Shown here piece by piece: positions 239-59,054 of a stretch of DNA of 64,000 nt. The position numbers and the translations under genes are program-made. The notes beneath the pieces are model-generated. The model ran no database searches. It was not told the origin of the DNA and saw nothing but the letters and a program-made list of their open reading frames with translations. Numbering within the stretch: position 1 is the stretch's first letter; each line of letters begins with the position of its first letter. The DNA comes from Candidatus Moanibacter sp. (GTDB lineage: Bacteria > Verrucomicrobiota > Verrucomicrobiia > Opitutales > UBA2987), in NCBI GenBank assembly GCA_965215885.1, contig CBDCEW010000091.1, positions 1 to 64,000 of the forward strand. Direction: 5' to 3'.

Positions 239-1138
239 ATGCCAGAAAGTAAACGTGTATTCAGCCCTGCCAAGGTGAACCTTTTTCTTGGTGTGACCGG
301 TAAACGGAGCGACGGTTTTCACGAGATCGTCTCGATTGTGTCGAAGGTGGGATTTGGTGACATGATGAGAATCAGTGTCGGTGGGAAACGTGAAAATGAT
401 CGACTGGTATGCAATATGAAGGCGCTCGATTGCGGGCCCGACAATCTTATTCGAAAAGCGGCGGATTCATTTCGCGAGGCGGCGCATTTGGATTTCGGTG
501 TGTGCGTAGAGTTGGATAAGGTCATTCCAGTAGGGGCGGGACTGGGAGGCGGAAGCAGTAATGCAGCGACCACATTGATCGCGCTCAATGACCTCTGTGG
601 CCACCCTTTGAATGAATCCGTGCTGCGAAAGGTCGCGACCACGCTCGGTTCAGATGTACCACTCTTCCTGAGAAAAGGACCGGTTATGATCAGAGGGCGG
701 GGTGAGGAAGTTACGGAGCTGCCTGTTTCGCTGACCGAGAGGATCGCGGGAAGGCGCATCCTGATATTCGCGCCGGAGTATACCATCAGCACGAAGTGGG
801 CCTATGCAAGGATGGCAGAGAGGCGCGAGAATTATGCGTCCGCAGACCTGGTGGAAGCGAAGTTGTCGGGTTGGAGTCGGAAGACGAGTACCTGGAAAGA
901 GATTCTCTACAATTCGTTTGAAGGGGTAATATTTCGAAAGTTTCCAGGTTTACCGACTTTGGTGAGAGAACTCGAACGGGAGTTTGATATTCCCTGTCTA
1001 TTGAGCGGCAGCGGCAGCGCCTGTTTTGCAATCTTGCGAAGCGATTCCCCAGTGGATTTGATATATCGGGGGATACAGGAGGGATGGGGAGATGAAGCGT
1101 TTATAGTTGAAGGCAGACTCGAAACTCCCTGTAATTAG
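239..1138 (+). CDS. ispE: 4-diphosphocytidyl-2-C-methyl-D-erythritol kinase
   Basis: SPAKVNLFL..GKRSDGFHEI, KVIPVGAGLGGGSSNAA, LGSDVP and LSGSGS GHMP-kinase motifs; ATG at 239 chosen as start. Confidence 0.95.
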   Translation: MPESKRVFSPAKVNLFLGVTGKRSDGFHEIVSIVSKVGFGDMMRISVGGKRENDRLVCNMKALDCGPDNLIRKAADSFREAAHLDFGVCVELDKVIPVGAGLGGGSSNAATTLIALNDLCGHPLNESVLRKVATTLGSDVPLFLRKGPVMIRGRGEEVTELPVSLTERIAGRRILIFAPEYTISTKWAYARMAERRENYASADLVEAKLSGWSRKTSTWKEILYNSFEGVIFRKFPGLPTLVRELEREFDIPCLLSGSGSACFAILRSDSPVDLIYRGIQEGWGDEAFIVEGRLETPCN

Positions 1139-1217
1139 TCCTATTCCCAGATTTCCTGTTTGGGATAATATGCCCATTTCCCGGCCAACTTTTGGCAGAA
1201 AGGTGCATTGATACGAC

Positions 1218-2978
1218 GTGCCTGAACAAGAAGAGATCACTTTACGCGGGCTTGCAGCTTCGCCGGGTGTAGCCCATGGCCCGATTTTCATGATACATCA
1301 GAAGGAGCTGGATGTTCCCAGGTACGTTGTCCCAAAGGAGAAGCGCGAAGATGAGGTTCCTCGATTTGAGCAGGCAATTCTCGAGACTCGACTGCAAATC
1401 AGCCAGACTCGATCGGAGGTTGCGGAGAAGGTGGGTGAGGAAGAGGCGCAGATATTCGACGCCCATCTACTTGTCCTGGACGATAAAGCGCTTCTCGATG
1501 AAACGGTTCATGAATTTGAGGAATCGGGTCTAAACATCGAACACTGCTTTCAATCGGTCGCTTCACGTTATATGGAGGCCTTCACTCTTATTGATGACGA
1601 ATACCTCAGGGAGAGAGTAGCGGATATACGTGATGTTACGCGGCGCCTGCAGGGGAATCTCCTCGGAAAGTCCCAGTACTCTATCGATGAAATGCTGGGA
1701 AAGAGAATCATCGTTTCAGAAGACCTGACGCCTTCTGAAACGGCCACTCTCGATGTAGCGAAAGTACTTGGAATAGCGACCGATGCAGGCGGGCCGACCA
1801 GTCACGTAGTTATCATGGCGCGGTCGATCGAGGTTCCCGCGGTTGTTGGCCTGCATAATATCAGCGACGTGGTGAATTCCGGGAATACTTTGCTGATCGA
1901 TGGTTATGGCGGGATTGTAATCGTAAACCCGACGGAGCAGAGCCTTCGACGCTATGGCAAGATCAAGCTCAAGCATCAGCATCAACACGATGTCTTTGAA
2001 GCAGGCGTTCACGAGCCGGCGACTACCCGAGACGGGCACGACCTTATCCTGCGCGCGAATATCGAGGGCTATGAGGACACTAATCGTTTGAAAGACTGCG
2101 GGGCGGACGGGGTTGGCCTCTTCCGGACCGAGGCCGTTTTTTTGAGAGTGGAAGGATTTCCCAGTGAAGAGGAACAGTTTGAAGTGTATCGCCACGTCGT
2201 TGAGGACTTGAGTCCTCAACCGGTGACAATACGCACTTTGGATTTAGGCGGAGATAAGGGACACCATGGCGAATACTTTCCCAAAGAAGACAACCCCTTT
2301 ATGGGCTTTAGAGGAATTCGCTTTTGCCTGGATCAGGTTGACGTATTCAAGAATCAGTTGCGGGCCATTTTGAGGGCCAGCGCCTACGGTAAAGTAAAAA
2401 TCATGTATCCTATGATAAGCGGAAAGCGAGAGATGGTGGAAGCAAGGCGCATATTTGAGGATGCGAAGGAAGACTTGATAGCGAAGGGTCAAGCGTTTGA
2501 TCCGGAAGTCGAACAGGGGAGTATGATAGAGGTGCCGAGCGCCGCTCTTACCGCCGATCTGCTGGCGAGGGAATGTGAATTTTTCAGCATCGGGACAAAT
2601 GACCTCGTGCAATACATTTTGGCGGTTGACCGGGTGAACGACCGGGTTGACCACCTTTATGATCCGAATCACCCTGCCGTGCTACGGACATTAAAAAATG
2701 TCATCGATGCAGCTCATCGAAACAGGATTCCCGTTGCGGTATGTGGAGAGATGGCCGGAGATCCGGTTTACACGGCGCTCCTGTTTGGACTCGGCGCCGA
2801 TGAGTTGAGCGCTACACCAGGCTATTTGCCCGAGATAAAATACCTAATCCGTAAGATGGAGCTTTCGGATGCAAAGAGGCTGGCGGATGAAGTGCTCCAG
2901 TTCAACGACTCAGAGGAGGTCTACCCCGTTTTGCGGAAGTATTACGCTGAGCACTTGGGAGCGGCGGTTATGAACTAG
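1218..2978 (+). CDS. ptsI: Phosphoenolpyruvate-protein phosphotransferase (PTS enzyme I)
   Basis: GGPTSH phospho-His motif, GVGLFRTE, RTLDLGGDK, NPFMGFRGIR, SIGTNDLVQY, VCGEMAG. Confidence 0.95.
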   Translation: MPEQEEITLRGLAASPGVAHGPIFMIHQKELDVPRYVVPKEKREDEVPRFEQAILETRLQISQTRSEVAEKVGEEEAQIFDAHLLVLDDKALLDETVHEFEESGLNIEHCFQSVASRYMEAFTLIDDEYLRERVADIRDVTRRLQGNLLGKSQYSIDEMLGKRIIVSEDLTPSETATLDVAKVLGIATDAGGPTSHVVIMARSIEVPAVVGLHNISDVVNSGNTLLIDGYGGIVIVNPTEQSLRRYGKIKLKHQHQHDVFEAGVHEPATTRDGHDLILRANIEGYEDTNRLKDCGADGVGLFRTEAVFLRVEGFPSEEEQFEVYRHVVEDLSPQPVTIRTLDLGGDKGHHGEYFPKEDNPFMGFRGIRFCLDQVDVFKNQLRAILRASAYGKVKIMYPMISGKREMVEARRIFEDAKEDLIAKGQAFDPEVEQGSMIEVPSAALTADLLARECEFFSIGTNDLVQYILAVDRVNDRVDHLYDPNHPAVLRTLKNVIDAAHRNRIPVAVCGEMAGDPVYTALLFGLGADELSATPGYLPEIKYLIRKMELSDAKRLADEVLQFNDSEEVYPVLRKYYAEHLGAAVMN

Positions 2979-3005
2979 GAATCTGTCGGACTTAGCATTC
3001 CTAAT

Positions 3006-4889
3006 TCACTGCTTTGGCGCAACCGTCTCGTTTAGCTCAACCCACCTTGAGATGCTCTTTATGGTCCAGGTCTCCTCGGTGTCGTCGATGACTGTAGTGA
3101 CGGTATTTCCTACTTTTTTCGAGATTAAACTCTGTCCCAGAGGAGTCTTGTAGGATAGGACATTTTCTTCCGGCTTGCTATCCCAAGCGCCCATGATATA
3201 ATAGGTAACGGTCTTTCCGGTGGATCCAACTTCCAATTCGACAGCGTTTCCTACGCCTATGGTGTCTGTTCGAGCATCCCCAAAATCTGTTACACGGGCC
3301 CGTTCCAATTCGTGTTCCAATTGGGATTTACGGGCAAGGAGGGCATCCTGCTCCTCCCGCGCCATTTTGAATTCGGAGTTTTCTCTCAAATCTCCGAGTT
3401 CACGGGCGGTCGCGATGGCTTTTTTATTTTCCGGTATTTTATTACGCACCAAATTCTCATATTCGCTCTTCCGCAGGTCGAGACTCTGCTGTGAGACAAT
3501 AAGCTGATCGCTCGTATCGACCTCGATGTCATCATCTCCGGAAACGAGACTCTGCACATTGGGAAACTGGCGGATGAAACGGGCGAGCAGGGACTTCTTG
3601 GTGAGGTCCTCGAAGCCCTGATTCAATATCAGGGTGGTGGCCAGGTCGCTCGCCGTCTCCGGGGTCGCTTCGGCTAACAATTCGGGGATGAGTTCCTCAT
3701 CGTCGCTGAGGAAGTCGGCGAGGGGGATACGACGGATGGCAACATTTTGCAGCGCTTCGTGATCGATGGCGTAAAAGATCGCTTTGAATAACCTCGGCGA
3801 GATGAGATCATTGAGCAACTTGGAATATTTGCGGGAATTTCTATACTTAACCACCCAATGCAGTAAAGGGCCCTTAATGATCTGCTCATCGAGCCAACGT
3901 CGTAGTGTCTCTTCGAGGAGGTCTCCGCGTTGAGTCTCAATAAGGAAATTTATGCATTCAGTAGTAAGCTTGCCGGAACTGTTTTTCAAAAGGTCGAAAG
4001 TGATCTTTTCCCAACGTTCCGGGTAGACCCTATGGAGCAGGTCGAGAAAACGCCGGTAGTATTTGCCTGGTATCTGTTCCGCAAGTTCCGACAAATTATG
4101 GACCTCCTCCAGGATCGAGGCGGAAGTAGGTAGTAGCTTCTCGACGTCCTCGTGAATGAAGCGTGCAAGATCGTTGCGAACCCATAGGCCATGGAGGCGC
4201 TCTCCCTGGTTGAGCAATCGGGTTTCTTTGAGCGCCGTGGTCAGCGTCTGAAGTATATCCGGTAATTGATCTTTGATCTCTTCATGGGAGAGAGAGAGTT
4301 CCAGCAGCTTTTCGGCCAGCGCAATTTGTTTCTTGGGTGCCTTAATATCGAAAAATTCCTCCAGGATTTCCTCTTCTGCCCTTACCGGTTCTTCTCGCAA
4401 TAAATAGGGTTCCGTCTTTTTGCTCGGGACCGCAACTCGGGGATCTTTGACGAGGAGCTTCTTTGTCGCGGACCACCACTTCTTGTATTTGGAGGGTCCC
4501 ATTATGCGGATGAGGTTGTTCTCAATTTCGGTGCTCGGGGCTGCCTGGCCCGCTAAGTGTGAGAGGAGTTCAACAATGAGGTCAGTGGGCCGCTTCTTTA
4601 TCATCTCTTCAACCACCTCAGGCTCGCGACGGTGGCGCGCCACAATATGCTCGTGGGAGAGTATCTCGAGTTTTCCAATACAAAATACCGGATCCATGGC
4701 ATGGCCGGTTTTGTCGTCTTCGAAATCAATGATCAGCTTGTTATCCTTGTCGGCATAGGATTTAATCTGCCCAAGGCCCCAACTGCGGTGAATGCAAAAA
4801 GCGCCCGGTTGCATGGATTCGAGTTTCGGCCGTGCCGATTTCAGTTGAGGGTTCTCCGTGATTAGGAGATCGATTGCTTCTTCGTTCAT
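3006..4889 (-). CDS. greA: Transcription elongation factor GreA with a long N-terminal extension
   Basis: C-terminal ARELGDLRENSEF and IMGAWDS...LSYKTPLGQSL GreA motifs; ~460-aa extension of the kind known from PVC and spirochaete GreA. Confidence 0.88.
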   Translation of the reverse strand: MNEEAIDLLITENPQLKSARPKLESMQPGAFCIHRSWGLGQIKSYADKDNKLIIDFEDDKTGHAMDPVFCIGKLEILSHEHIVARHRREPEVVEEMIKKRPTDLIVELLSHLAGQAAPSTEIENNLIRIMGPSKYKKWWSATKKLLVKDPRVAVPSKKTEPYLLREEPVRAEEEILEEFFDIKAPKKQIALAEKLLELSLSHEEIKDQLPDILQTLTTALKETRLLNQGERLHGLWVRNDLARFIHEDVEKLLPTSASILEEVHNLSELAEQIPGKYYRRFLDLLHRVYPERWEKITFDLLKNSSGKLTTECINFLIETQRGDLLEETLRRWLDEQIIKGPLLHWVVKYRNSRKYSKLLNDLISPRLFKAIFYAIDHEALQNVAIRRIPLADFLSDDEELIPELLAEATPETASDLATTLILNQGFEDLTKKSLLARFIRQFPNVQSLVSGDDDIEVDTSDQLIVSQQSLDLRKSEYENLVRNKIPENKKAIATARELGDLRENSEFKMAREEQDALLARKSQLEHELERARVTDFGDARTDTIGVGNAVELEVGSTGKTVTYYIMGAWDSKPEENVLSYKTPLGQSLISKKVGNTVTTVIDDTEETWTIKSISRWVELNETVAPKQ

Positions 4890-6631: not shown

Positions 6632-6714
6632 TGCCCGAGGAGGGACTCGAACCCTCACGACCTTACGGTCAGCGGATTTTAAGTCCGCAGCGTCTACCAT
6701 TCCGCCACCCGGGC
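6632..6714 (-). tRNA. trnL: tRNA-Leu (anticodon TAA), CCA not encoded
   Basis: Reverse complement GCCCGGGTGGCGGAATGGTAGACGCTGCGGACTTAAAATCCGCTGACCGTAAGGTCGTGAGGGTTCGAGTCCCTCCTCGGGCA folds into a cloverleaf with a long variable arm and GGTTCGAGTCCC T-arm. Confidence 0.97.
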
Positions 6715-16122: not shown

Positions 16123-16304
16123 CTAGCCCGGATATTTCACACACTTCGCAGCGAGACAGCGTAGATCGTTGCGTATCAGAACATTTCCGCAGGTCGGCGG
16201 GCGACAGTGTGTTGGAACTCTCTGAGGTCGCCGAGCAAGGGAAGGGGTTGAGACGCAGTGATATCCGCGGTCGTAGCAGAAGGTTTGTGAAATTTTCGGG
16301 CTAG
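16123..16304 (+). mobile_element. 182-bp CTAG-ended MITE, copy A
   Basis: TIRs CTAGCCCGGATATTTCACA / TGTGAAATTTTCGGGCTAG; same length as and nearly identical to 39308-39489. Confidence 0.9.
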
Positions 16305-16611
16305 ACATCCTTGAGGTACCGATTCTCAGGTGAGAGATGGAGATTCGGAAGAAAATGAGACCGACAGATTCCTAAATACCGGCAAGCCGGGAGGAGGTCG
16401 CTGACTCGACTGCATTGTCATCGTGCGCGGCCTGTCTTGAGCCCGTCGAATTGATTGAGAAGTACATTCGGAAGAGACTGTCTCTATTAATTGCTCCGGT
16501 AGCGACCCGGCTGGACATCGAGATGACACGAACGACGAAGTCGTCCGGCTGCTAAGATAAATGAAATCGCTGATGAGGGTAGCCGGATCGCTGCGCGATT
16601 CGGACTGTTTC

Positions 16612-20778: not shown

Positions 20779-21606
20779 ATGCCGCCTCCTGCACCACCCA
20801 CTTCCGAACGGAAGCTCGCCCTCGCCTACGAAACGAGTTACCGGAAGTATGCCCCGACCCTTTGCTCTGGAACCGGCGGCTGGGTTATCAAAGAAGACGA
20901 TATCTGTGTTCACGCGAGACCAACAGCTTCGTTCGGTAACGGGCTTTACTATTCGCCTTGGAAGGCGCCTGACGTGTCGGAAAAGCTCAGGCGTGCCATT
21001 CGCCTCTATCAGCAGACCGGACAAGGGATGGGCGTCATCACGGGACCATCGTCGCCGGCAGATGCAATGCGCGGGGAACTGAGAACTCTTGGTTTCAAAT
21101 GCGCCTACCACCTTCCGTTCATGCGTCTCGACCTGAATAACATACGTTATCCCGCTAAACCGCCGAACGGAACCAAGGTATGCAGAGTAACCGATTTCTC
21201 AGTTTTTCGAAAACACGAGCACCCCTGGCATGGCAAAGCCACGACCAAACCCCGACGGGCTATCTTTTCCTTTTTTGAGAAGGAGACAAACGCGCCACGC
21301 CAGCGACTTTGGCAATTCATCGCCTTCGAAGGTGAAGTTCCTGTGGCTTCCGCCATGATCTTCCGAACAGGTAGGATCTGCGGTGTTTACGACGTTGCTA
21401 CGGTAAGGAGTCATCGGCGCCGTGGCATTGGCCACTTTATCATGGCTACGGCGTGCGAATTCGCCCGCGACCAGGGTATGACCGTAGCCGCTCTTGGGGC
21501 CAGCGGTAAAGGTGTGGGGTTGTACGAGAAAACCGGATTCAAACTCTGTGGAAGTTACGGTGAATACTACCTGGGGAAAGCCAGGTTGGCGGCGCTTCGA
21601 GTGTAG
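20779..21606 (+). CDS. GNAT family N-acetyltransferase
   Basis: VYDVAT..SHRRRGIG and G..LYEKTGF motifs. Confidence 0.85.
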   Translation: MPPPAPPTSERKLALAYETSYRKYAPTLCSGTGGWVIKEDDICVHARPTASFGNGLYYSPWKAPDVSEKLRRAIRLYQQTGQGMGVITGPSSPADAMRGELRTLGFKCAYHLPFMRLDLNNIRYPAKPPNGTKVCRVTDFSVFRKHEHPWHGKATTKPRRAIFSFFEKETNAPRQRLWQFIAFEGEVPVASAMIFRTGRICGVYDVATVRSHRRRGIGHFIMATACEFARDQGMTVAALGASGKGVGLYEKTGFKLCGSYGEYYLGKARLAALRV

Positions 21607-21654
21607 CGGGAGATCTCTTCGTGCGGATTCCAATTAGAACATTTGTATACCCCC

Positions 21655-21752
21655 GTCATTGCGAGGAAGGATGACGAAGCAATCCAGGAGTAGGAGTTCG
21701 ACGTTGATTGACCCTGGATCGCCACGCCTCCCTGAGGTCGGCTCGCGATGAC
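21655..21752. repeat. RPE-like palindromic repeat (GTCATTGCGAG...CTCGCRATGAC)
   Basis: Self-complementary ends with internal GCAATCCAG/CTGGAT; related copies at 26188-26280 and 33875-33980. Confidence 0.75.
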
Positions 21753-21765
21753 AAGAAGAAGGGAC

Positions 21766-22615
21766 CTAGCCCGAACATTTCAGACAGCGCCGATTAAAAC
21801 CGGCAGTAAGTAGTGAATGAAAGAGTCATACAGTAAAGAACTAGCCAATCGTACTGGCCCCGAGTCATGGCGGTATATCTGAGAGGGTATGCTGCAAGCG
21901 TTGACAGGGGAAGATGCAGGCTGGGTGATTGAGCCGCGAAAGTTGGGCAAGGTTTGGAGGGCCGACCTTCTTGAAATATGGGGAAGGCAAAATCGGACGG
22001 GTCGCAAAGACGAAGAGCCGTCCGGCCTCTGCGCGGTCGGAGAGCGGGGCATGCAAGGAAGCTTACTGAGCGGGAATCGGGAGAGCCGAGGGCTGGCAGC
22101 GCAAAGCAGCGTTGTCGGCACCGCGAATCCAAGGAGTAATGCGGTGATGAACGGTCCACGGCAGTCGGACAGGTCCGTAGTACCGAAGAAGGCGGCGAAC
22201 AAAGATGGTGCTGCGGCACTGTTGGCGGAGTCGCTGGAGGAAAGGGACCTGCCCAAGGGGAATCCTCAAGAGCAAACCAACCGCCGGACACAGGACCGGG
22301 AAAGCTTGTCACAAGCGCAGGCGAGGATACGGCGAGCGGCACAGTACGCTTGCGCGTTAATACCCGAGGGAGGAGCCCGGTGCGGTAATTCCGCTCGCCG
22401 GGATCTGTGCGGGGGGTCCCCGGCGACGGGGATTCCTACCGCGACCAAATCTACTACTACGACGACGGATCTCATCGCGTGTCAATGCCTTCCCTTGCCC
22501 GGCGACCTCAGAGGGTCTTAACACACTGTTCCCGTCTTGCCGGGACTACGCAAAGGCTCTGATATGCAGCAATCTACGCGGTCTCGCTACGAAGTGTGTG
22601 AAATGTCCGGGCTAG
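21766..22615 (-). mobile_element. CTAG-ended MITE, copy C (inverted, more diverged), interrupted by a group II intron
   Basis: 21766-21782 joined to 22446-22615 aligns with the reverse complement of copies A and B; both CTAG ends present. Confidence 0.85.
21783..22445 (+). ncRNA. ORF-less group II intron (IIB-like, probably bacterial class E) with the RT ORF deleted
   Basis: D5 GAGCCCGGTGCGGTAATTCCGCTCGCCGGGATC (22373-22405); D6 with bulged A22438 at -8; 3' AC; D1 motifs GGCCCCGAGTCATG and GCGTTGACAGGGG; EBS1 TGAAAT complements the 5' exon ATTTCA. Confidence 0.9.
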
Positions 22616-23296
22616 TCAGAAGTCCGCCGAGTCCCCGATAGCCAAAAGCACCAGTTCCAGATTCCGGTCTGCGAATTGCCTCTTTGCCGCGTCGTGATCG
22701 ATTGTGATGTAGGGGAAGGTGTCAAAGTGGATTCCCAGTACTTTGCTGACTCCAACAAACTCTGCCGCCCTGGCCGCATCTCTTGCGCCCATCGTAAAGT
22801 TGTCCCCAATGCAGAGGGCTGCCCAGTTGAGTTCCGTTGTTTCGCCGATGAGTTTCATGTCGTATGTAAGGGCGGCGTCGCCTGAAAAGTAGAAATTGCC
22901 CTCCCCTGACTCGATCACGAATCCGCCCGGATTGCCTCCGTAGGTTCCGTCGGGAAGCGCACTACTGTGAATCGCGTTTACATAAGTGACCCGGCCAAAG
23001 TCGAAGTCCGATCCTCCTCCGTGATTTAGTGGGTGCGCATTGTCGATCCCTTTCCCTCCATACCAGAAGAGGATTTCCGGATTCGATATGAGTGTGGCTC
23101 CGGTTCGCTTCAGGATGGATTCGGCATCCGCGACATGGTCTGCATGCCCGTGACTGAGCAGGACGTAGTCAGCTTCAATCGCATCAATGTCGATATCCCT
23201 GGCAAGTTCGTTTGGGCTGATGAAAGGATCGAAAATAAGCTTTTTTCCGGAGATTTCCACATGGATGCAGGATTGGCCGTAATAAGTAACTTTCAT
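22616..23296 (-). CDS. UPF0173 metal-dependent hydrolase (metallo-beta-lactamase fold)
   Basis: IFDPFI..N, SHGHADH, AIHSS, YFSGD, IGDNFTMG, IHFDTFP. Confidence 0.92.
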   Translation of the reverse strand: MKVTYYGQSCIHVEISGKKLIFDPFISPNELARDIDIDAIEADYVLLSHGHADHVADAESILKRTGATLISNPEILFWYGGKGIDNAHPLNHGGGSDFDFGRVTYVNAIHSSALPDGTYGGNPGGFVIESGEGNFYFSGDAALTYDMKLIGETTELNWAALCIGDNFTMGARDAARAAEFVGVSKVLGIHFDTFPYITIDHDAAKRQFADRNLELVLLAIGDSADF

Positions 23297-39307: not shown

Positions 39308-39489
39308 CTAGCCCGGACATTTCACACACTTCGCAGCGAGACAGCGTAGATCGCTGCGTATCAGGGCCTTTCCGCAGTTCGGCGGGCGACAGTGTGTTGG
39401 AACCCTCTGAGGTCGCCGAGCAAGGGAAGGGGTTGAGACGCAGTGATATCCGTGGTCGTAGCAGAAGGTTTGTGAAATTTTCGGGCTAG
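39308..39489 (+). mobile_element. 182-bp CTAG-ended MITE, copy B
   Basis: TIRs CTAGCCCGGACATTTCACA / TGTGAAATTTTCGGGCTAG; the right CTAG supplies the stop codon of 39486-40109. Confidence 0.9.
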
Positions 39490-40109
39490 AGTATCTCCTT
39501 ATAGACCTCCCTTACCTCGATTCGGGCATTGCCGGGAGTAGAGTTTCTGATCTCCTCTGCCACGCTGTGCGCCAGGGGCAGCATCACCGATCGCGGATGG
39601 GATCCGGGCACTTCCAGGGACTGACGTTTTGAGCCCAGAATCGTCAACCCCGCCGCGAAATCCTCCGTTTCGAAACTCTTCCCTTCTTCAAGATTCTCAA
39701 GGTTCCGAATTTCTAGACTCTCAATTGATTCGATGGGAATCGAATTTGATTTCTTCACGAATCTGATCTTTTCTGAGGCCGCGAGGATCCCGTCAGAGAT
39801 CCGAATCTCTGTGTGATGCAGGTTCAGCGCGGTGAGAATTCCCATCAGGATGATAAATATGCCAAGCAGAAAGGGTGGTACGCCCAGGAAGGCGAAGCCG
39901 ATGATGATCCACCGGAAAATGCCGGATTCCGGCAAACTCAGGAGTGGAACCGCGATCCATGTGAACATGAAGAGACAGATCATAATCCCGAAAAGAATCA
40001 CCATGATGCCGTTTTTCAAAGATGGCATGGCATCCGCCTTCGGGAGCCTGTAAACGGTTCCTCGTAGCGTTTGCGATTGCACAATCCCAGGGGGCAGATC
40101 GGTTTTCAC
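39486..40109 (-). CDS. Membrane protein of unknown function (possibly 3' truncated by the MITE)
   Basis: Two hydrophobic helices; stop codon coincides with the MITE end. Confidence 0.6.
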   Translation of the reverse strand: MKTDLPPGIVQSQTLRGTVYRLPKADAMPSLKNGIMVILFGIMICLFMFTWIAVPLLSLPESGIFRWIIIGFAFLGVPPFLLGIFIILMGILTALNLHHTEIRISDGILAASEKIRFVKKSNSIPIESIESLEIRNLENLEEGKSFETEDFAAGLTILGSKRQSLEVPGSHPRSVMLPLAHSVAEEIRNSTPGNARIEVREVYKEIL

Positions 40110-53257: not shown

Positions 53258-53324
53258 GGCGTCCACAGGCCTTCGCCTCAAGAAACTGCGAAGCAGTTTC
53301 CCATAACCGGCGCGCCAGCGCCGG

Positions 53325-54161
53325 TTATCCTTTGACCCCGCCGAGCTGGATACCCGCCACGATCTGTTTCTGCATGAAAACAAAAAAGACCACTAGCGGC
53401 AGGACATACATCACGGTGGCCGCCATGAGCAACTCGGTCTGGGCGGCGTAGTCCGATCGAAAGCTCATGAGGCCGATGGGGAGGGTGCGCAGGTAGTCGT
53501 CCTTGATCATCACCAGGGGCCAGAAGAAACTCTGAAAATTGCCCAGATAAGTGAGGATGGCGAGGGTCACCAATCCTGGCCGGGACAGTGGTAGGATGAC
53601 GTCGAGAAAAATCTGCAGGTGGCTGGCGCCATCCATTTTGGCGGCCTCATCATAGGAGCTCGGTAAAGTGAGCATGAATTGCCTGAGCAAGAACGTGCCG
53701 AAGGTGGTGAAAGCCTGGGGCAGGATCAGACCGGTGTAGGTGTTGACCAAACCAAGGCCCACCATAATTTGGTAATTCGGAATGAGCAGCACGATCCCGG
53801 GAATCATCATAGTCGAGAGGTAGAGGAGGAAAACCTTGTCGCGTCCCGGCCAATGGATGCGCGAGAAGGCGTAGGCGGCCATTGCGCTGGTCAATACCTG
53901 CAGTGCGGTCACCCAGGAAGCGACGAAAAGGCTGTTGAAGTACCATTTGGGAAAATCCAGATCGAGGAACTTCTTCGTGTAGGGTTCGGGGGCCATGCGC
54001 AGGACCACGCCGAAATTCTCGACCTGGGCCGATTCCGGCAGCAACTTCAGGGAGAAAATCTCCGGCCGCGACTTAAGGCTGGCCGCAAGCATCCAGAGAA
54101 ACGGAAAAATCAAGAGGGCCGCGAAAAAGACCATGAGAAGATGTTTGAGCATTATCTTCAT
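53325..54161 (-). CDS. Carbohydrate ABC transporter permease
   Basis: NSL, AAYAFSR, EAAKMDGAS (EAA loop), TLPIGL. Confidence 0.93.
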   Translation of the reverse strand: MKIMLKHLLMVFFAALLIFPFLWMLAASLKSRPEIFSLKLLPESAQVENFGVVLRMAPEPYTKKFLDLDFPKWYFNSLFVASWVTALQVLTSAMAAYAFSRIHWPGRDKVFLLYLSTMMIPGIVLLIPNYQIMVGLGLVNTYTGLILPQAFTTFGTFLLRQFMLTLPSSYDEAAKMDGASHLQIFLDVILPLSRPGLVTLAILTYLGNFQSFFWPLVMIKDDYLRTLPIGLMSFRSDYAAQTELLMAATVMYVLPLVVFFVFMQKQIVAGIQLGGVKG

Positions 54162-54420
54162 TGATTTCTTAGCGCATTAAATTCGGAACCAAATTGGAAG
54201 GTCCTTCCGTAGTGAAAAGATTTGAACAGAAGGAAACAGAGATAAACGAAGAGGGATGAGAGAAGAGGAGTAACCCACGGATGGCTCCGCTGTACCACGG
54301 ATGGAAAGAGTGAAATTGGAAAGCGAAAGGGAGCCCTTCATTCATTCGTTGCTGACTCATCTTCCCGCTCAGTGGGATTGCGGCTTTGCGTGAGATTTTT
54401 TCCCTTTTCCTCTCCGTAAA

Positions 54421-54770
54421 CAGATTGGGTTTATCCTCCAGGAGCAATGGGACGATTTCGGGAAGCTGACGATGCTCAAGCGGGGCCGCAAGGCGGCCGA
54501 CTCACTAACGGGGGAACTGAGCCATCTTGAAGAGGGCCTGTCGATGGATTCACTGCCTTGACTCTATCGGGTACAAGCCACAACTGGTTCGCAGCGAAAA
54601 CGGTTTTGTCACCAGCCTGATCGTACCGCAAGGCAATGCGGCAGACTCCATTGAGCTGGCGCCGGCCATCGGCGATTCGATCAAGCGCACCGGTGTCATT
54701 GCTGAACTGATCAGCACCGATGACGGATATGCTTCGGCGAAGGGGCGCAAGGAGGTGCTGAGCATGGGGG
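54421..54770 (+). mobile_element. Fragmented DDE (IS5/IS4-like) transposase relic
   Basis: IGYKPQL.RSENGFV....VPQGNAADS..L and STDDGYAS, preceded by discontinuous pieces (QIGFILQEQWDDFGKLT; LKRGRKA). Confidence 0.65.
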
Positions 54771-55043
54771 TAAACGAAGTCGTGCGCTTCGCGGCCGTAG
54801 CGCCAGTTGACCAGGGTGAGCGCGAAAATGATGACAAACAAAACCCAGGCGATAGCGGATCCGTAGGCAAGGTCCAGCCGTTCAAAGCCTCTGTCCTGTT
54901 CAAAATAGCTAAAGGTTTGACTCTAAACGAAGTCGTGCGCTTCGCGGCCGTAGCGCCAGTTGACCAGGGTGAGCGCGAAAATGATGACAAACAAAACCCA
55001 GGCGATAGCGGATCCGTAGGCAAGGTCCAGCCGTTCAAAGCCT
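54771..55043. repeat. 120-bp perfect direct duplication (54771-54890 = 54924-55043) with a 33-bp spacer
   Basis: Direct sequence comparison; duplicates the 3' end of the permease gene. Confidence 0.92.
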
Positions 55044-56029
55044 TGTTGGTAGATATAGTAAACGAGGGTGGTGGTGGTGCCCGGACCGCCGCCGGTCATG
55101 AGACGGACCGCTTCGAACCCGCCCTGTAAACCGCCGATGACTCCGGTAACAACGAGAAAGAACGTCACCGGGGCGAGTTGCGGGATCGTGATGTAGCGGA
55201 GTTTCTGGAGCCAGTTGGCGCCGTCGATATCCGCCGCTTCGTAGAGTTCCGGCGGGATATTAGCGATACCGGCGAGGTAGAGCAGCATGTGTGTGCCACC
55301 GATGCCGGCCCACAGGCCCATGATCATGATCGCCTCTCGGGCGCCGAGGCCGAAGCCGCCGTTATTGAAATAGTCGGGCAGCGGGAGGAAACCGAGGAGC
55401 GATTTCGTGCTGCGCAGCCAGGTGGGCATGTCCACGTCGAGACCGAAAAAGCCGGTGATAGATCGAAGGACCATGTTGATAAATCCAAAATCCGGGTTGT
55501 AGAGCTGCGCCCAGAGCAGAATCGTGGCGGCGCCGGCGGTGAAATGAGGAAGGTAGAAGACCGTGCGGTAACTGACCGAACCGAAGCGAAATCCCAGAGC
55601 GATGATCAGACCGAGCGCGCAGAGGAAATAACCAACGTCCGCGTAGCCGGCGAGGGCCAATCCGGCGGTGGAGAATAATGCGATCGCCAGACAGATGATG
55701 GCGGAGCTCCGGTTCCGGGAGGGATCCCGAAATTCGAACTTCTCGCTCAAGTAGACCGCGGCAAGAAGGGAACCGAAGATCGACAGGGGCAAGGCGGAAA
55801 GTAGATAAATCGTGTTAAAGAAATAAAAGAGGACATAGCGATCTTGAAAGAGTCGCTTGTAATTCTCCAGACCGACAAACTCCAGCGGCACGGAAACCTG
55901 CAGGCTCCATGTGGAAAAGCTGCCGAGAAAACTCATGATGACCGGCACTGACGTAAAGGCCAGAAACCCAAGGAAATTCGGGGCCAGGAACCCGATGGCG
56001 ATAAGCGTTTCTTTGCTGCGAGTGGTCAT
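54923..56029 (-). CDS. Carbohydrate ABC transporter permease
   Basis: FLAPN, FVGLENY, ELYEAADIDGA, ITIPQL. Confidence 0.92.
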   Translation of the reverse strand: MTTRSKETLIAIGFLAPNFLGFLAFTSVPVIMSFLGSFSTWSLQVSVPLEFVGLENYKRLFQDRYVLFYFFNTIYLLSALPLSIFGSLLAAVYLSEKFEFRDPSRNRSSAIICLAIALFSTAGLALAGYADVGYFLCALGLIIALGFRFGSVSYRTVFYLPHFTAGAATILLWAQLYNPDFGFINMVLRSITGFFGLDVDMPTWLRSTKSLLGFLPLPDYFNNGGFGLGAREAIMIMGLWAGIGGTHMLLYLAGIANIPPELYEAADIDGANWLQKLRYITIPQLAPVTFFLVVTGVIGGLQGGFEAVRLMTGGGPGTTTTLVYYIYQQGFERLDLAYGSAIAWVLFVIIFALTLVNWRYGREAHDFV

Positions 56030-57498
56030 GGAGACGACCCCTTTCCGGCAGGGCCAAGGCTTGCGATTTCCTCGGCCCGGCGGCGCGACTCAACCAGGTC
56101 CTGGTAACGCTTTCGCAACCCCGGGTTACGCGACAGGTTCAATGCGATCAGCGCTTCGGCTTCTTGCTTCGCCTGACGTAGCGCTTCGCGCGTGTCGAGC
56201 GCGGGGTTGGCATTCAACCGCTCAAGATGCCTGGTGATGACCCGATTCAGGTCGATAACGGAGAGAAACGGGCTCTTGCGCGGGCTGTAGCCGTAGGCGA
56301 GCGACTCCACGTTGGCCCGGTGTACTTTGATTTCGGACAATTCGGGATAACCTGGGGATAGGCCGGCGTCGACGAATTCCGGGATGGGTGGCAGGTAGTC
56401 GAGGGTCTGGTTTACGATCCGGCAGTATTCCTCGCTCCTGAGAAACGAAAGGAACCGCAGGACGGCTTCGCGTTTCGTGCTTTGCCGGTTCACCGCCACG
56501 GAACGGGCGCCCACCCCGATTGCCGGGGGCAAACCCTCAAAGTGCGGCATGAGAGTCGCTCCCACTCGGATGACCTCGGGGCGCGGCTTGTTCCCGCGGT
56601 CAGGGTCCGCTTGCCATTTCTCGAGCTGGTCCCGCTGATGGTCGACTGCCTGGCGGAGGTAGGCGAGGAGCGATTTCGGGCGCACGATCATGGCGAACCT
56701 CCCCTGGGCGAAGAGTTCCTGGGAGACATCACCCCCGCTTCGGCCCGTCAATTCGGCAAATTCGTCTGCATTCAACCGCACGCCGTGCACGTCGGCGAGG
56801 TCGCGGTAGAGCTGGACGGCCCGTACCATGGCATCGCTGTCCACCAGGACTTCGGTACCGTCCGGCGAGAAGAATTCCCCGCGCAGGGTGTGAAAGATGT
56901 CGGTGTGGCCGAGTTTGACGATCCCGTAAATCGAGTCGTAGGGATTTTCGGCCATGTAGGTGACGTTCTTTGCGATTTCAATAAACTCGCGCCACGTCAA
57001 CGGAGCCTCGGGGTAGGGAACATTGAACCGATCGAAGATATTCTTGTTGTAGAACAGAATTCGCCCGTTAACCGAGAGCGGCACGCCGTACTGTTTACCG
57101 TCAAAACTCACCTGTTCGCGCAGCCCGGGTCACGCGGTCGCATCGTCGATTTCAAGGCCGTATTGGTCCAGGTAGGGGTCGAGTTCAAGAACAATGCCCG
57201 TCTCGGAACCGGCTTGAATGTAGGCGTCGTAAAAGGACTCAAACATATCGGGCCCGACACCGCTGCTGCACTGCAGGATCAGTTTGCGGAAGTCGCCGAA
57301 GTTGGCGAAATCCGCAATGATTTTGAGGTCGGGGTTGGCCTGGTTGAAAGCCGCGATTTGGTCCGCCCGGGCGGGCGTGCTGTTAGTGGCGTAGACGATG
57401 GCGTTTTCGCCGGCGCTTGGGCTCGGAGGTACCAGCAGTTTAGCGATGATGGTCCAGACCGCGAGACCGACAGCAATCGCAGCAAGAACGGTTTTCAT
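56026..57498 (-). pseudogene. Sugar ABC transporter substrate-binding protein with an in-frame TGA at 57130-57132
   Basis: ORFs 57130-57498 and 56026-57111 share a frame (..ATA*PGLREQVSFDGKQYGVP..); LFYNK.IFD and TW.EF motifs. Confidence 0.82.
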
Positions 57499-59054
57499 AA
57501 GTCGTTTCGTGGGCTGAAGGATGCGCGGAACAGGTCATCATCGAGCCATTCCACCACGCGATTGGGATCGCGAGGTATGCCGGCGGCATCTTCAGCAGGA
57601 AGAAACCGCCGCAAACGGTTAATAACCCGCCGATGCTCCCCTTTGGAGGCGACATTCCGCCACTCGTGCGGATCGTCGCTGTGGTCGTACAGTTCCTCGC
57701 TTCCGTCCGCGTACCGGATATACCGCCAACGAGGTGATCTCAACGAATGGTTGCCGCGACCGTAGGTTGTAAGAACGGGGGACCGGCGTCCCTTTCTTGG
57801 TTTTCTGGTCATTGGGGATATGTCCTCGCCTTCAAGCCGGTGGGAAGTCGGATGCGGAAGACCGCACAAACGAGTCAATGTTGGATAGATATCGATGAGA
57901 CTGACAGGCGTCGAACAGTCGGATGGTTCTCTCTGTGTCTGTCCCGGCACGGACACGAGGAGCGGCACACGCGCACTTCGCTCCCAGAGCGTAAATTTGT
58001 TCCAATGCTCTTTTTCTCCGAGATGATAACCGTGATCACTGCACGAAACGATAATGGTGTTGGAATTATGCGGCGAGGCTTCCAGGGCGTCGAGAACGCG
58101 CCCGATTTGCTCGTCTGCGTACGAAATCGATGCGCAGTAGGCTTGGATTGCGTGCAGCCAGAGGCCTTTTTCGACGAGTGTGCGATGTGTGTCGGGCGTA
58201 ACATTGCGGCTCGCCAGCCACCGGGCCGGAGGCGGCAGATCGTCAAGATCACCGTCGGTGTAGCCGGATGGTGTCCTGAGTTCGCTTACCGGATATAGAT
58301 CGAAGTAACGCTTGGGTACGAACCATCTGGAATGCGGCCGAAAAATGCCGAGCGCGGCGAAAAAAGGAGTATCCTGAACCGTTTCGATCACTTCAGCCGT
58401 CCGTATGGCGTAGCGGGTGTCCTGCTGCATCCTGTCTGGGTCTTCCCGATCCCAGCTATCGGGTAGCGCGCCCCAGGAATAAGGCCAGACCGGATCAATG
58501 CTCGTGACGGATTCCGCTTCCGCGTAAAGTCCCCTCTCGCTTCCCTGTCCGGCGTAGTAACCGTCGCTCCAGGAATGGGCGTCCCGGTCCTGGTACCTCC
58601 CGTGAAAGATCTTGCCGTAACCGGCCGCGAGGTAGCCGTTGGCCTTGAAATGCTGCGGAAGGTTGACGACCTCGCCTAACCAACCGCCCGCGTCGCGGTA
58701 GGATTGGTTGTTGAAATATACGCCCGAAGTTGACGGCCGTATGCCGGTCAGAAAACTCGTGCGGGACGGGCCACAGGCTGGGGCCGAACAATAGGCGCGT
58801 GTAAACACGGTGCTGCGCTTGGCCAGTCGTTCGAGATTCGGAGTGTAGACACGGGTATCGCTGAGCAGCGGGGTCCAGTCGTTCATGTCGTCGAATACGA
58901 TCATGAGGACGTTTGGCCTGTTTGCAGAGCCGGTTTTTGGGTTAAGTTTTGACAATCCGAAATGAGGAACCGTGACCACAGCGCCGGCGGTCAATGTAGC
59001 GCGTTTGAGAAACGATCGCCGACTTTCCGATTGCGCCGTGTCCTTAAAATCCAT
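57495..59054 (-). CDS. Tat-exported sulfatase (iduronate/choline sulfatase-like)
   Basis: SRRSFLK twin-arginine signal, DDMND, CGPSRTSFLTG (CxPxR), GKIFH, SDHGYHLGEK. Confidence 0.92.
   Translation of the reverse strand: MDFKDTAQSESRRSFLKRATLTAGAVVTVPHFGLSKLNPKTGSANRPNVLMIVFDDMNDWTPLLSDTRVYTPNLERLAKRSTVFTRAYCSAPACGPSRTSFLTGIRPSTSGVYFNNQSYRDAGGWLGEVVNLPQHFKANGYLAAGYGKIFHGRYQDRDAHSWSDGYYAGQGSERGLYAEAESVTSIDPVWPYSWGALPDSWDREDPDRMQQDTRYAIRTAEVIETVQDTPFFAALGIFRPHSRWFVPKRYFDLYPVSELRTPSGYTDGDLDDLPPPARWLASRNVTPDTHRTLVEKGLWLHAIQAYCASISYADEQIGRVLDALEASPHNSNTIIVSCSDHGYHLGEKEHWNKFTLWERSARVPLLVSVPGQTQREPSDCSTPVSLIDIYPTLTRLCGLPHPTSHRLEGEDISPMTRKPRKGRRSPVLTTYGRGNHSLRSPRWRYIRYADGSEELYDHSDDPHEWRNVASKGEHRRVINRLRRFLPAEDAAGIPRDPNRVVEWLDDDLFRASFSPRNDL

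Follow-up and report, generated by a model that had tools for sequence, protein, structure and literature searches.

Bacterial group II introns habitually sit in other mobile DNA (PMC4424553), as Dai and Zimmerly reportedly also noted in 2002. The described systems closest to the locus presented here (the articles being drawn on in part throughout this text) are: (i) RmInt2 of Sinorhizobium meliloti GR4, which has every one of its copies in the inverted repeats of the insertion sequence (IS) ISRm17, and whose retrohoming was shown by authors who also pointed out that the inverted repeats of an IS double the number of target sites (PMC4615759), and (ii) TeI3 of Thermosynechococcus elongatus, which lacks an open reading frame (ORF) and is mobilised in trans by the 'driver' reverse transcriptases (RTs) of TeI4 (PMC2882425). 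In the portions used of the Zimmerly-Semper review, ORF-less introns are described as rare in bacteria and nearly always present beside related RT-encoding introns, and those with an unusual domain V could, according to the same source, have been overlooked (PMC4424553). In this study, a DNA stretch of 64,000 nt (the window; positions 1-64000 of contig C91) from the 6.36-Mb Candidatus Moanibacter genome under study (G000; assembly 90.3% complete, 5.5% contamination) was found to contain an ORF-less group II intron of 663 nt, inserted in a terminal inverted repeat (TIR) of a miniature inverted-repeat transposable element (MITE). The case joins the habits of RmInt2 and TeI3, and differs from both in its non-autonomous carrier and in the lack of a close RT in the assembly. 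Very probably, the intron is a non-autonomous, ORF-deleted derivative of an endonuclease-less, RT-encoding intron, which spreads by retrohoming into the MITE TIR. Homing into transposon inverted repeats and trans-mobilised ORF-less introns are both already published, and the novelty implied by the first-pass annotation of the window (made from the sequence alone) is smaller than thought, since RmInt2 already homes into the ISRm17 inverted repeats (PMC4615759). The literature searches made turned up no published account of MITEs as homing sites of group II introns, the most promising papers treating the two elements separately.

The intron (Table 1) begins with GACAG and ends with AC. Comparison of the occupied site (...ATTTCA^GACAGCG...CGCGAC^CAAA, carets marking the junctions) with empty ones (...ATTTCA^CAAA) revealed a clean split of the MITE with no duplication. 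From the ATTTCA^CAAA of empty MITE copies it follows that the insertion comprises exactly GACAGCG...CGCGAC and that no other register fits; together with the Rfam match, these base-exact boundaries bear out the intron and the insertion point proposed in the first-pass annotation. The 5' exon is composed of a CTAG flank, a candidate intron-binding site 2 (IBS2, GCCCGA, 21769-21774), a 2-nt AC spacer and IBS1 (ATTTCA, 21777-21782), and its 17 bases match 92 free left-type MITE ends. The intron site is located 14 nt inside the TIR, and the split MITE copy has a length of 187 bp (17 + 170). In total, 4 intron copies are present in G000 (C91:21783-22445, C103:131645-132307, C49:14826-15488 and C90:117692-118357), all of which have CTAGCCCGAACATTTCA upstream and CAAA(T/C)C downstream; three of them continue to ...TGTGAAATGTCCGGGCTAG, while the fourth ends at a contig end. 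All four are placed at ATTTCA^ of a MITE end, as the first-pass annotation would have it, and one decayed relic, on contig C94, lies elsewhere. Related introns have left decayed fragments, 73-84% identical, at C94:91074-91275, C5:13365-13444 and C100:73935-74020.

Table 1. Coordinates of the intron, its parts and its MITE carriers in the window
Feature	Position	Strand	Evidence
ORF-less group II intron, 663 nt	21783..22445	+	RF02005 match, 4 genome copies, empty-site comparison
Left end of split MITE (5' exon)	21766..21782	+	same 17 bases before 4/4 intron copies
Rest of MITE (3' exon), right TIR ...TGTGAAATGTCCGGGCTAG at end	22446..22615	+	blastn to empty MITE copy (query 19-192), flank comparison
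Domain 1 core	21822..22046	+	cmscan alignment to full Rfam model
Candidate exon-binding site 2 (EBS2) UUGGGC, 5' internal loop of domain 1 distal stem	21943..21948	+	6 pairs (1 G-U) with 21769-21774
EBS1 UGAAAU, terminal loop of EBS1 hairpin	21972..21977	+	Rfam structure, compensatory change, family test
RT (intron-encoded protein) frame remnant in domain 4, first 66 codons, then deletion junction ~22340-22346	22147..22344	+	tblastn, alignment to G007 intron
Domain 5: AGC triad, 2-nt bulge, 5-nt loop, G opposite A in triad helix	22373..22405	+	RNAalifold, many compensatory pairs
Domain 6, bulged branch-point A at 22438	22408..22443	+	RNAalifold, 62 sequences
Intact unoccupied MITE	16123..16305	-	blastn
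Intact unoccupied MITE	39308..39490	-	blastn

The target rule of the intron can be read from a comparison with G007, an 8.3-Mb genome in 3 contigs from a different genus of the same family. The IBS1 of its intron reads ATCTCA and the corresponding loop TGAGAT, versus ATTTCA and TGAAAT in G000, and as far as a comparison of the two genomes reaches EBS1 is proven by this covariation. EBS1 forms 6/6 pairs with the IBS1 adjoining the 5' splice site. The guide also matches, on the counts obtained, the target allele that is locally common: MITE ends of G000 carry ATTTCA 199 times and ATCTCA 15 times, and those of G007 carry them 22 and 28 times, respectively, among the 50 ends listed out of 53. The first-pass annotation had placed TGAAAT in the loop of a CTTC/GAAG stem. 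According to the Rfam covariance model, the hexamer does fall inside the EBS1 loop; the stem has to be revised, as the homology-based register is CCUU/UGGG inside GCC/GGC, with the hexamer in the loop either way. The assignment was also examined in RT relatives from public genomes (53-65% protein identity). Of 58 sequences, 17 without a loop matching the regular expression and 7 duplicates were removed, and among the 34 scored, 25 distinct relatives paired 6/6 with their own exon, versus 5.3% of 1114 mismatched controls.

The pairing of TTGGGC with GCCCGA proposed in the first-pass annotation is possible (six pairs, one of them G-U), while its role as EBS2/IBS2 is plausible but unproven. The hexamer lies in the 5' internal loop just before the EBS1 hairpin, which is the place of EBS2 in IIB-type introns, and its G007 counterpart is UCGGGC opposite GCCCGG, again with six possible pairs.

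All copies with a 5' junction (4 in G000 and 2 in G007) are found at one and the same position of the CTAGCCCG...T(C/T)TCA end, which supports the homing to the MITE end put forward at first. The introns on C91, C103 and C49 are 0-1 base apart in 663, and the bodies of their host MITEs are only 78.8-86.5% identical (18-31 mismatches in ~165 bases); the hosts represent different subfamilies (CAAATCT... versus CAAACCATCTGC...), which diverge from position +5 of the 3' exon. Because near-identical introns reside in host MITEs that are this diverged, the insertions are independent and recent, and an RT was therefore available recently. The copy on C90 is 95.3% identical and has the same deletion junction, hence the ORF-less form is older than the last burst.

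The same comparison bears on two explanations that do without retrohoming. A MITE could have captured the intron once, after which a ~850-bp composite was spread by the transposase; every copy sits at the same position of one repeat family with both TIRs intact, and an 850-bp element would be tolerable to the transposase. Transposition of such a composite is excluded by the near-identical introns in diverged MITE subfamilies, for the carriers are 78.8-86.5% identical yet their introns 0-1 base apart, and the G007 intron occupies the opposite MITE end, so that we regard this explanation as extremely improbable. The other holds that the intron is immobile as RNA and that homologous recombination or gene conversion between repeat copies carried it from one MITE to the next; MITE homology exists on both sides of the intron, and the failure to find a retrohoming-capable RT in the assembly agrees with this. 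Such copying appears very improbable, given that homology on the left is just 17 bp, that the right side differs from +5 without a co-converted tract, and that conversion would require neither the EBS1/IBS1 match nor its joint change between the genomes.

Retrohoming of a deleted derivative is further supported by the RT-encoding relative found in G007. This intron has 1926 nt, and its RNA parts are 89-91% identical to the 663-nt intron. It is inserted in the right end of a member of the same MITE family (CTAGCCCGGACATCTCA^...^CACACTTCGTAGC) with the complete MITE around it; a second, truncated copy in the same genome is preceded by CTAGCCCGCTTTTCTCA. The encoded RT/maturase (493 aa) matches TIGR04416 (348.5 bits; cut-off 300) and RVT_1, and a domain search gave no match to an HNH endonuclease. 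Of the full-length, RT-encoding relative with an identical EBS1 sought after the first-pass annotation, the intron itself was found, while its EBS1 is not the same and has changed with the target (TGAGAT opposite ATCTCA). In domain 4 of the 663-nt intron, the RT frame remnant is 76% identical to residues 1-66 of the G007 protein (tblastn), about 8 C-terminal codons are also kept, and ~1.27 kb in between has been deleted relative to the G007 intron, with a junction that is identical in 4/4 G000 copies. Judged by this alignment, the 663-nt intron is an internal-deletion derivative of a ~1.9-kb RT-encoding intron. It thereby resembles TeI3, in which a single domain 4 deletion common to all copies has left N- and C-terminal ORF remnants and mobility depends on an RT in trans, as presumably here. 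In the parts of the TeI3 study considered, closely related RT-encoding introns are reported from the same genome, whereas here none is closer than 43%, and the targets of TeI3 are diverse, some within other introns, and not a single repeat family (PMC2882425).

The following mechanism may be proposed. The intron RNA would be transcribed, probably by read-through from a co-directional upstream gene, and spliced with the aid of an RT/maturase supplied in trans. The lariat ribonucleoprotein would then reverse-splice into DNA where EBS1 UGAAAU, and probably also EBS2 UUGGGC, pairs with ATTTCA and GCCCGA; both target boxes would fall in the outermost 14 bases of a MITE end. Complementary DNA would be made by the RT, presumably with a replication-fork primer as there is no endonuclease. 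Because the MITE has multiplied to ~142 copies, hundreds of identical, harmless intergenic targets are offered to the intron. We infer that splicing takes place, that EBS2 has a role and that the MITE still transposes, and likewise the trans-acting RT with its source and the priming route; the proteins of both the intron and the MITE would be supplied in trans.

With RmInt2, as portrayed in the sections of PMC4615759 used, this system shares the confinement of all copies to inverted repeats of one transposable element, an RT without endonuclease, a 2-nt linker between IBS2 (here a candidate) and IBS1 (the RmInt2 target being read by EBS1/2/3) and the occurrence of head-to-tail intron pairs, here a single one in the relative G045. 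Unlike the present intron, which is ORF-less and inserted in a MITE without transposase, RmInt2 encodes an RT itself and homes into a complete IS; further differences are that only one end is used in G000 and that the 5' end is GACAG (PMC4615759).

The structural core supports assignment to group II introns. RF02005 (group-II-D1D4-6) matched domain 1 over model positions 1-225 of 225 with 168.7 bits (gathering score 49). For domains 5 and 6 (D5 and D6), an alignment of the 3'-terminal 88 nt from 62 distinct family members was folded with RNAalifold, and A22438 is the eighth base from the 3' end of the intron. D5, D6, the bulged A at -8 and the 3' AC listed in the first-pass annotation are thus all present, backed by covariation in these members. 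Relative to ORF-less relatives with 68% identity, pairs are kept by 46 two-sided and 25 one-sided changes and broken by 1, a count that favours the structure, since both come from one alignment. Ribozyme activity is assumed from the recent spread.

Several observations weigh against the view that the intron is a retrohoming, ORF-deleted derivative, and they are considered here together. No cognate RT was found in the G000 assembly by tblastn, the best matches being on contigs C37 (43% identity, residues 58-480) and C92 (32%). Because the assembly is only 90.3% complete, absence of a cognate RT is not shown by this result, and the full-length copy may be missing from the assembly. The C37 intron (~53300-55350, minus strand) is RT-encoding, with an RF02005 score of 46 bits (below the cut-off), a canonical D5 and a very long D6 region. 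The C92 intron (~56400-57800, plus strand) has a 456-aa ORF with GIIM and an RF00029 score of 55.6 bits.

As the C37 RT is the only one of this RNA class in the assembly and its intron has the sub-threshold RF02005 match, retrohoming might have been helped by this distant relative, acting as a relaxed-specificity driver in place of the missing cognate RT; driver proteins mobilising several ORF-less introns are documented in the portion of the Thermosynechococcus work used (PMC2882425). We consider such help quite unlikely. An identity of 43% is far below that of the pairs shown to work; among RmInt introns that are 72-88% identical, heterologous RTs spliced the partner intron yet mobilised it only after changes at distal exon positions, according to the sections of PMC4615759 used; and ~10% of the genome is absent from the assembly, repeats being most often missing. 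A speculative variant, unlikely as well, would make the intron a long-lived, RT-less bacterial 'SINE' (short interspersed element), co-evolved with one MITE family in at least 2 genera, its EBS1 following the dominant TIR allele of each genome, and still multiplying after loss of its own RT by borrowing the 43%-identical one of a resident intron. If true, this would be a stable nested partnership of an RNA-based and a DNA-based non-autonomous parasite, each relying on a different borrowed enzyme.

Also to be counted on the negative side is the distribution of insertions. The relic C94:91074-91275 (84% identical, without positions 131-473) lies off MITE ends; its target rule is unreadable because the EBS region is lost. 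Among 254 GCCCGR-NN-ATTTCA sites in G000, 4 are occupied, 98 are free left-type, 123 free right-type and 29 other, i.e. 4/102 left-type sites are occupied versus 0/123 right-type ones (one-sided probability ~0.04, calculated by hand). The 4 insertions all occupy left ends, each of which has A at -9, a base found in 92/98 free left ends, while 115/123 free right ends have G. The left-end preference may be due to the two adjacent G-U pairs that G at -9 would create with EBS2 UUGGGC; the right-end G007 intron has UCGGGC at this position. Two potential sites per MITE had been suggested in the first-pass annotation. This holds across genomes, since the full-length G007 copy is in a right end; within one genome the two sites are unrealised, because G000 uses left ends only (4/4). 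The family test of EBS2/IBS2 was weak (mean 4.06 versus 4.61 - 1.00 = 3.61 for the control; 17 loci without regular-expression match).

Other points of this kind concern the ribozyme, the carrier and expression. The general D5-D6 model RF00029 gave no match on 21600-22700, even at E<=1, and genome-wide in G000 only the unrelated C92 intron matches it. The intron departs from the textbook in its 5' end, which is GACAG and not GUGYG, and in the D5 G opposite A. A textbook D5 has a G-U wobble in the AGC triad and a GNRA loop; in all 62 family members, an A is opposite the G of the triad and the 5-nt loop is UARUN. No autonomous IS with the MITE end (GCCCGRACATTTCAC) was found in the G000 contigs or beside the MITE in G007. 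Two metatranscriptome contigs are identical to 21791-22010 and 22161-22435, with the unique upstream gene (20779-21606) uncovered there, and these RNA-library contigs may be DNA carry-over.

The unusual 5' end is a character of the lineage: it is GACAG in G000, GATAG in G007 and GAAAG or the canonical GUGCG in relatives. GACAG, GATAG and GAAAG are followed by CGCC, and the RT relatives at 53-65% identity start with GUGCGCC. Variant 5' ends were seen at 21783-21789, at L009 1501-1507, and in the loci L022, L025-L033, L046, L047, L054, L064, L065 and L069. In the alignment, the first two bases of the variant correspond to exon positions of canonical relatives, and IBS1 directly adjoins GA. It seems that either the 5' splice site has shifted by 2 nt or the GUGYG motif has been replaced, and the lineage is presumably still retromobile. 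A comparable case in the portion used of PMC4024640 is C.te.I1 of Clostridium tetani, which is ORF-less and whose 5' splice site, set by IBS1-EBS1, does not abut GUGYG. That intron is immobile, with an 8-nt shift and a lost branch site, in contrast to the retromobile lineage, 2-nt offset and kept branch A found here (PMC4024640).

The carrier MITE has no coding capacity and no transposase. A blastn search of G000 with an empty copy resulted in 233 high-scoring segment pairs, 139 of which were near full length (138 copies and one self-reverse match of the query); with the 4 intron-bearing ones, ~142 copies of ~183 bp are present in 6.36 Mb. The ends of the 138 intact copies are inverted repeats (CTAGCCCGRACATTTCACA and its complement), and the TIR motif GCCCGRACATYTCAC has 214 matches in G000, with 0 for a reversed-pattern control. 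Within the window, the split MITE is the third copy beside two intact ones, and the five free GCCCGR-NN-ATTTCA ends (16126, 16301, 22612, 39311 and 39486) were recovered, both as first annotated. The sole non-MITE site of this type (55366-55379, minus strand, GCCCGACTATTTCA^ATAACG) is unoccupied. As with RmInt1 and ISRm2011-2, a multi-copy mobile element provides an abundant, harmless homing site; RmInt1 differs, in the parts of the review used, in being autonomous and in having its site in the transposase gene of an autonomous IS and not in a TIR (PMC4424553).

Nearly every MITE end is bordered by CTAG, which fits a TA duplication within a CTAG target. Such a duplication presumably resembles that of IS630-type elements. 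Abutting MITE pairs with one common CTAG (...CCGGGCTAGCCCG...) were observed at C18:14874/14877, C75:18084/18087 and C28:18406/18409, the pattern predicted if a CTAG target is formed anew at every MITE end. Several candidates for the parent IS were rejected: (i) the IS630-type DDE_3 genes on C104 and C69, both without the MITE TIR; (ii) TIR pairs 0.6-3.5 kb apart, which belong to neighbouring MITEs, to MITEs with an intron or to one that an ISAs1-type IS has split; (iii) a 2084-bp TIR pair on C105, which is such a split MITE; and (iv) an IS630-like element beside the G007 MITE, whose ends (GTACAWTRTCC) are unrelated to the MITE TIR. The last is inserted at the CTAG flanking the MITE (L190, G007:C3:2566300-2568800, local ~1048-2275). 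In the split MITE on C105 (L191, G000:C105:184400-186800), a ~1.9-kb IS is inserted mid-MITE with GCGACAGT repeated at both junctions, and its 460-aa product has DruA-like, DDE_Tnp_1_assoc and DDE_Tnp_1 domains. The MITE thus receives insertions of another kind of element as well. Elsewhere in the window, a tRNA gene with a long variable arm was identified (6632-6714, minus strand; RF00005, 58.6 bits).

Beyond the two genomes, an order-level search gave matches at E<=1e-10 in 13/201 genomes, and within the family (9 genomes) the intron or the MITE motif was found in G000 and G007 only. ORF-less relatives of 707-726 nt (68% identical) are present in G045 and G112. Their deletion junction is a different one, which means that ORF loss is recurrent in the lineage. 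On the reverse strand of L106 (G045:C1:1964300-1968600, local 852-3511), an RT-encoding intron of full length is followed head-to-tail by an ORF-less copy of itself with no exon base between them. L106, L107 and L108 (from G045 and G112) have the same 18 nt upstream (GCTTAACTAAGCGCCATT, with a small palindrome) and unrelated 3' exons, which suggests that this sister lineage may home to the outer edge or hairpin of another repeat. In one metagenome-assembled genome of Syntrophomonadales (L025-L033), GAAAG-type copies lie between inverted flanks, e.g. GCATCAYGG-GGACAGTCC^intron^CCRTGATGC, that is, inside hairpin loops whose stems vary while the loop is conserved.

A metagenome scan for the 3' junction TTCCTACCGCGACCAMAY revealed a MITE-type 3' exon in 0/80 loci examined, the single 'LEFT' call made by regular expression being a false positive. 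The scan is uninformative on the spread of the intron-MITE pair because TTCCTACCGCGACCAMAY is common to many unrelated intron lineages. Four public runs yielded contigs over the intron, one of which reads through the deletion junction as well as the 3' junction without any difference. In all four runs, contigs diverge at 22317, within a stretch that corresponds to the conserved RT N-terminus and has depth from many organisms, and one run contains a variant with G007-type EBS1 and EBS2. No splice junction was seen among the RNA-library contigs covering the intron. In 4/4 G000 copies, the closest ORF of 150 aa or more on the upstream side is co-directional with the intron.

The intron adds to the few known bacterial ORF-less introns one with a D5 that RF00029, the general Rfam model of D5-D6, fails to detect. 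As a compact ribozyme of 663 nt with a readable target rule and an RT known in a relative, it is a ready substrate for mobility assays, and the two-genome comparison provides an unusually clean natural compensatory change of guide and target. For the biology of these elements, it would be a natural case of a group II intron that has shed the cost of its own gene yet spreads, aiming at the end repeat, which is the one sequence that a transposon family must conserve and which is multiplied in harmless intergenic places.

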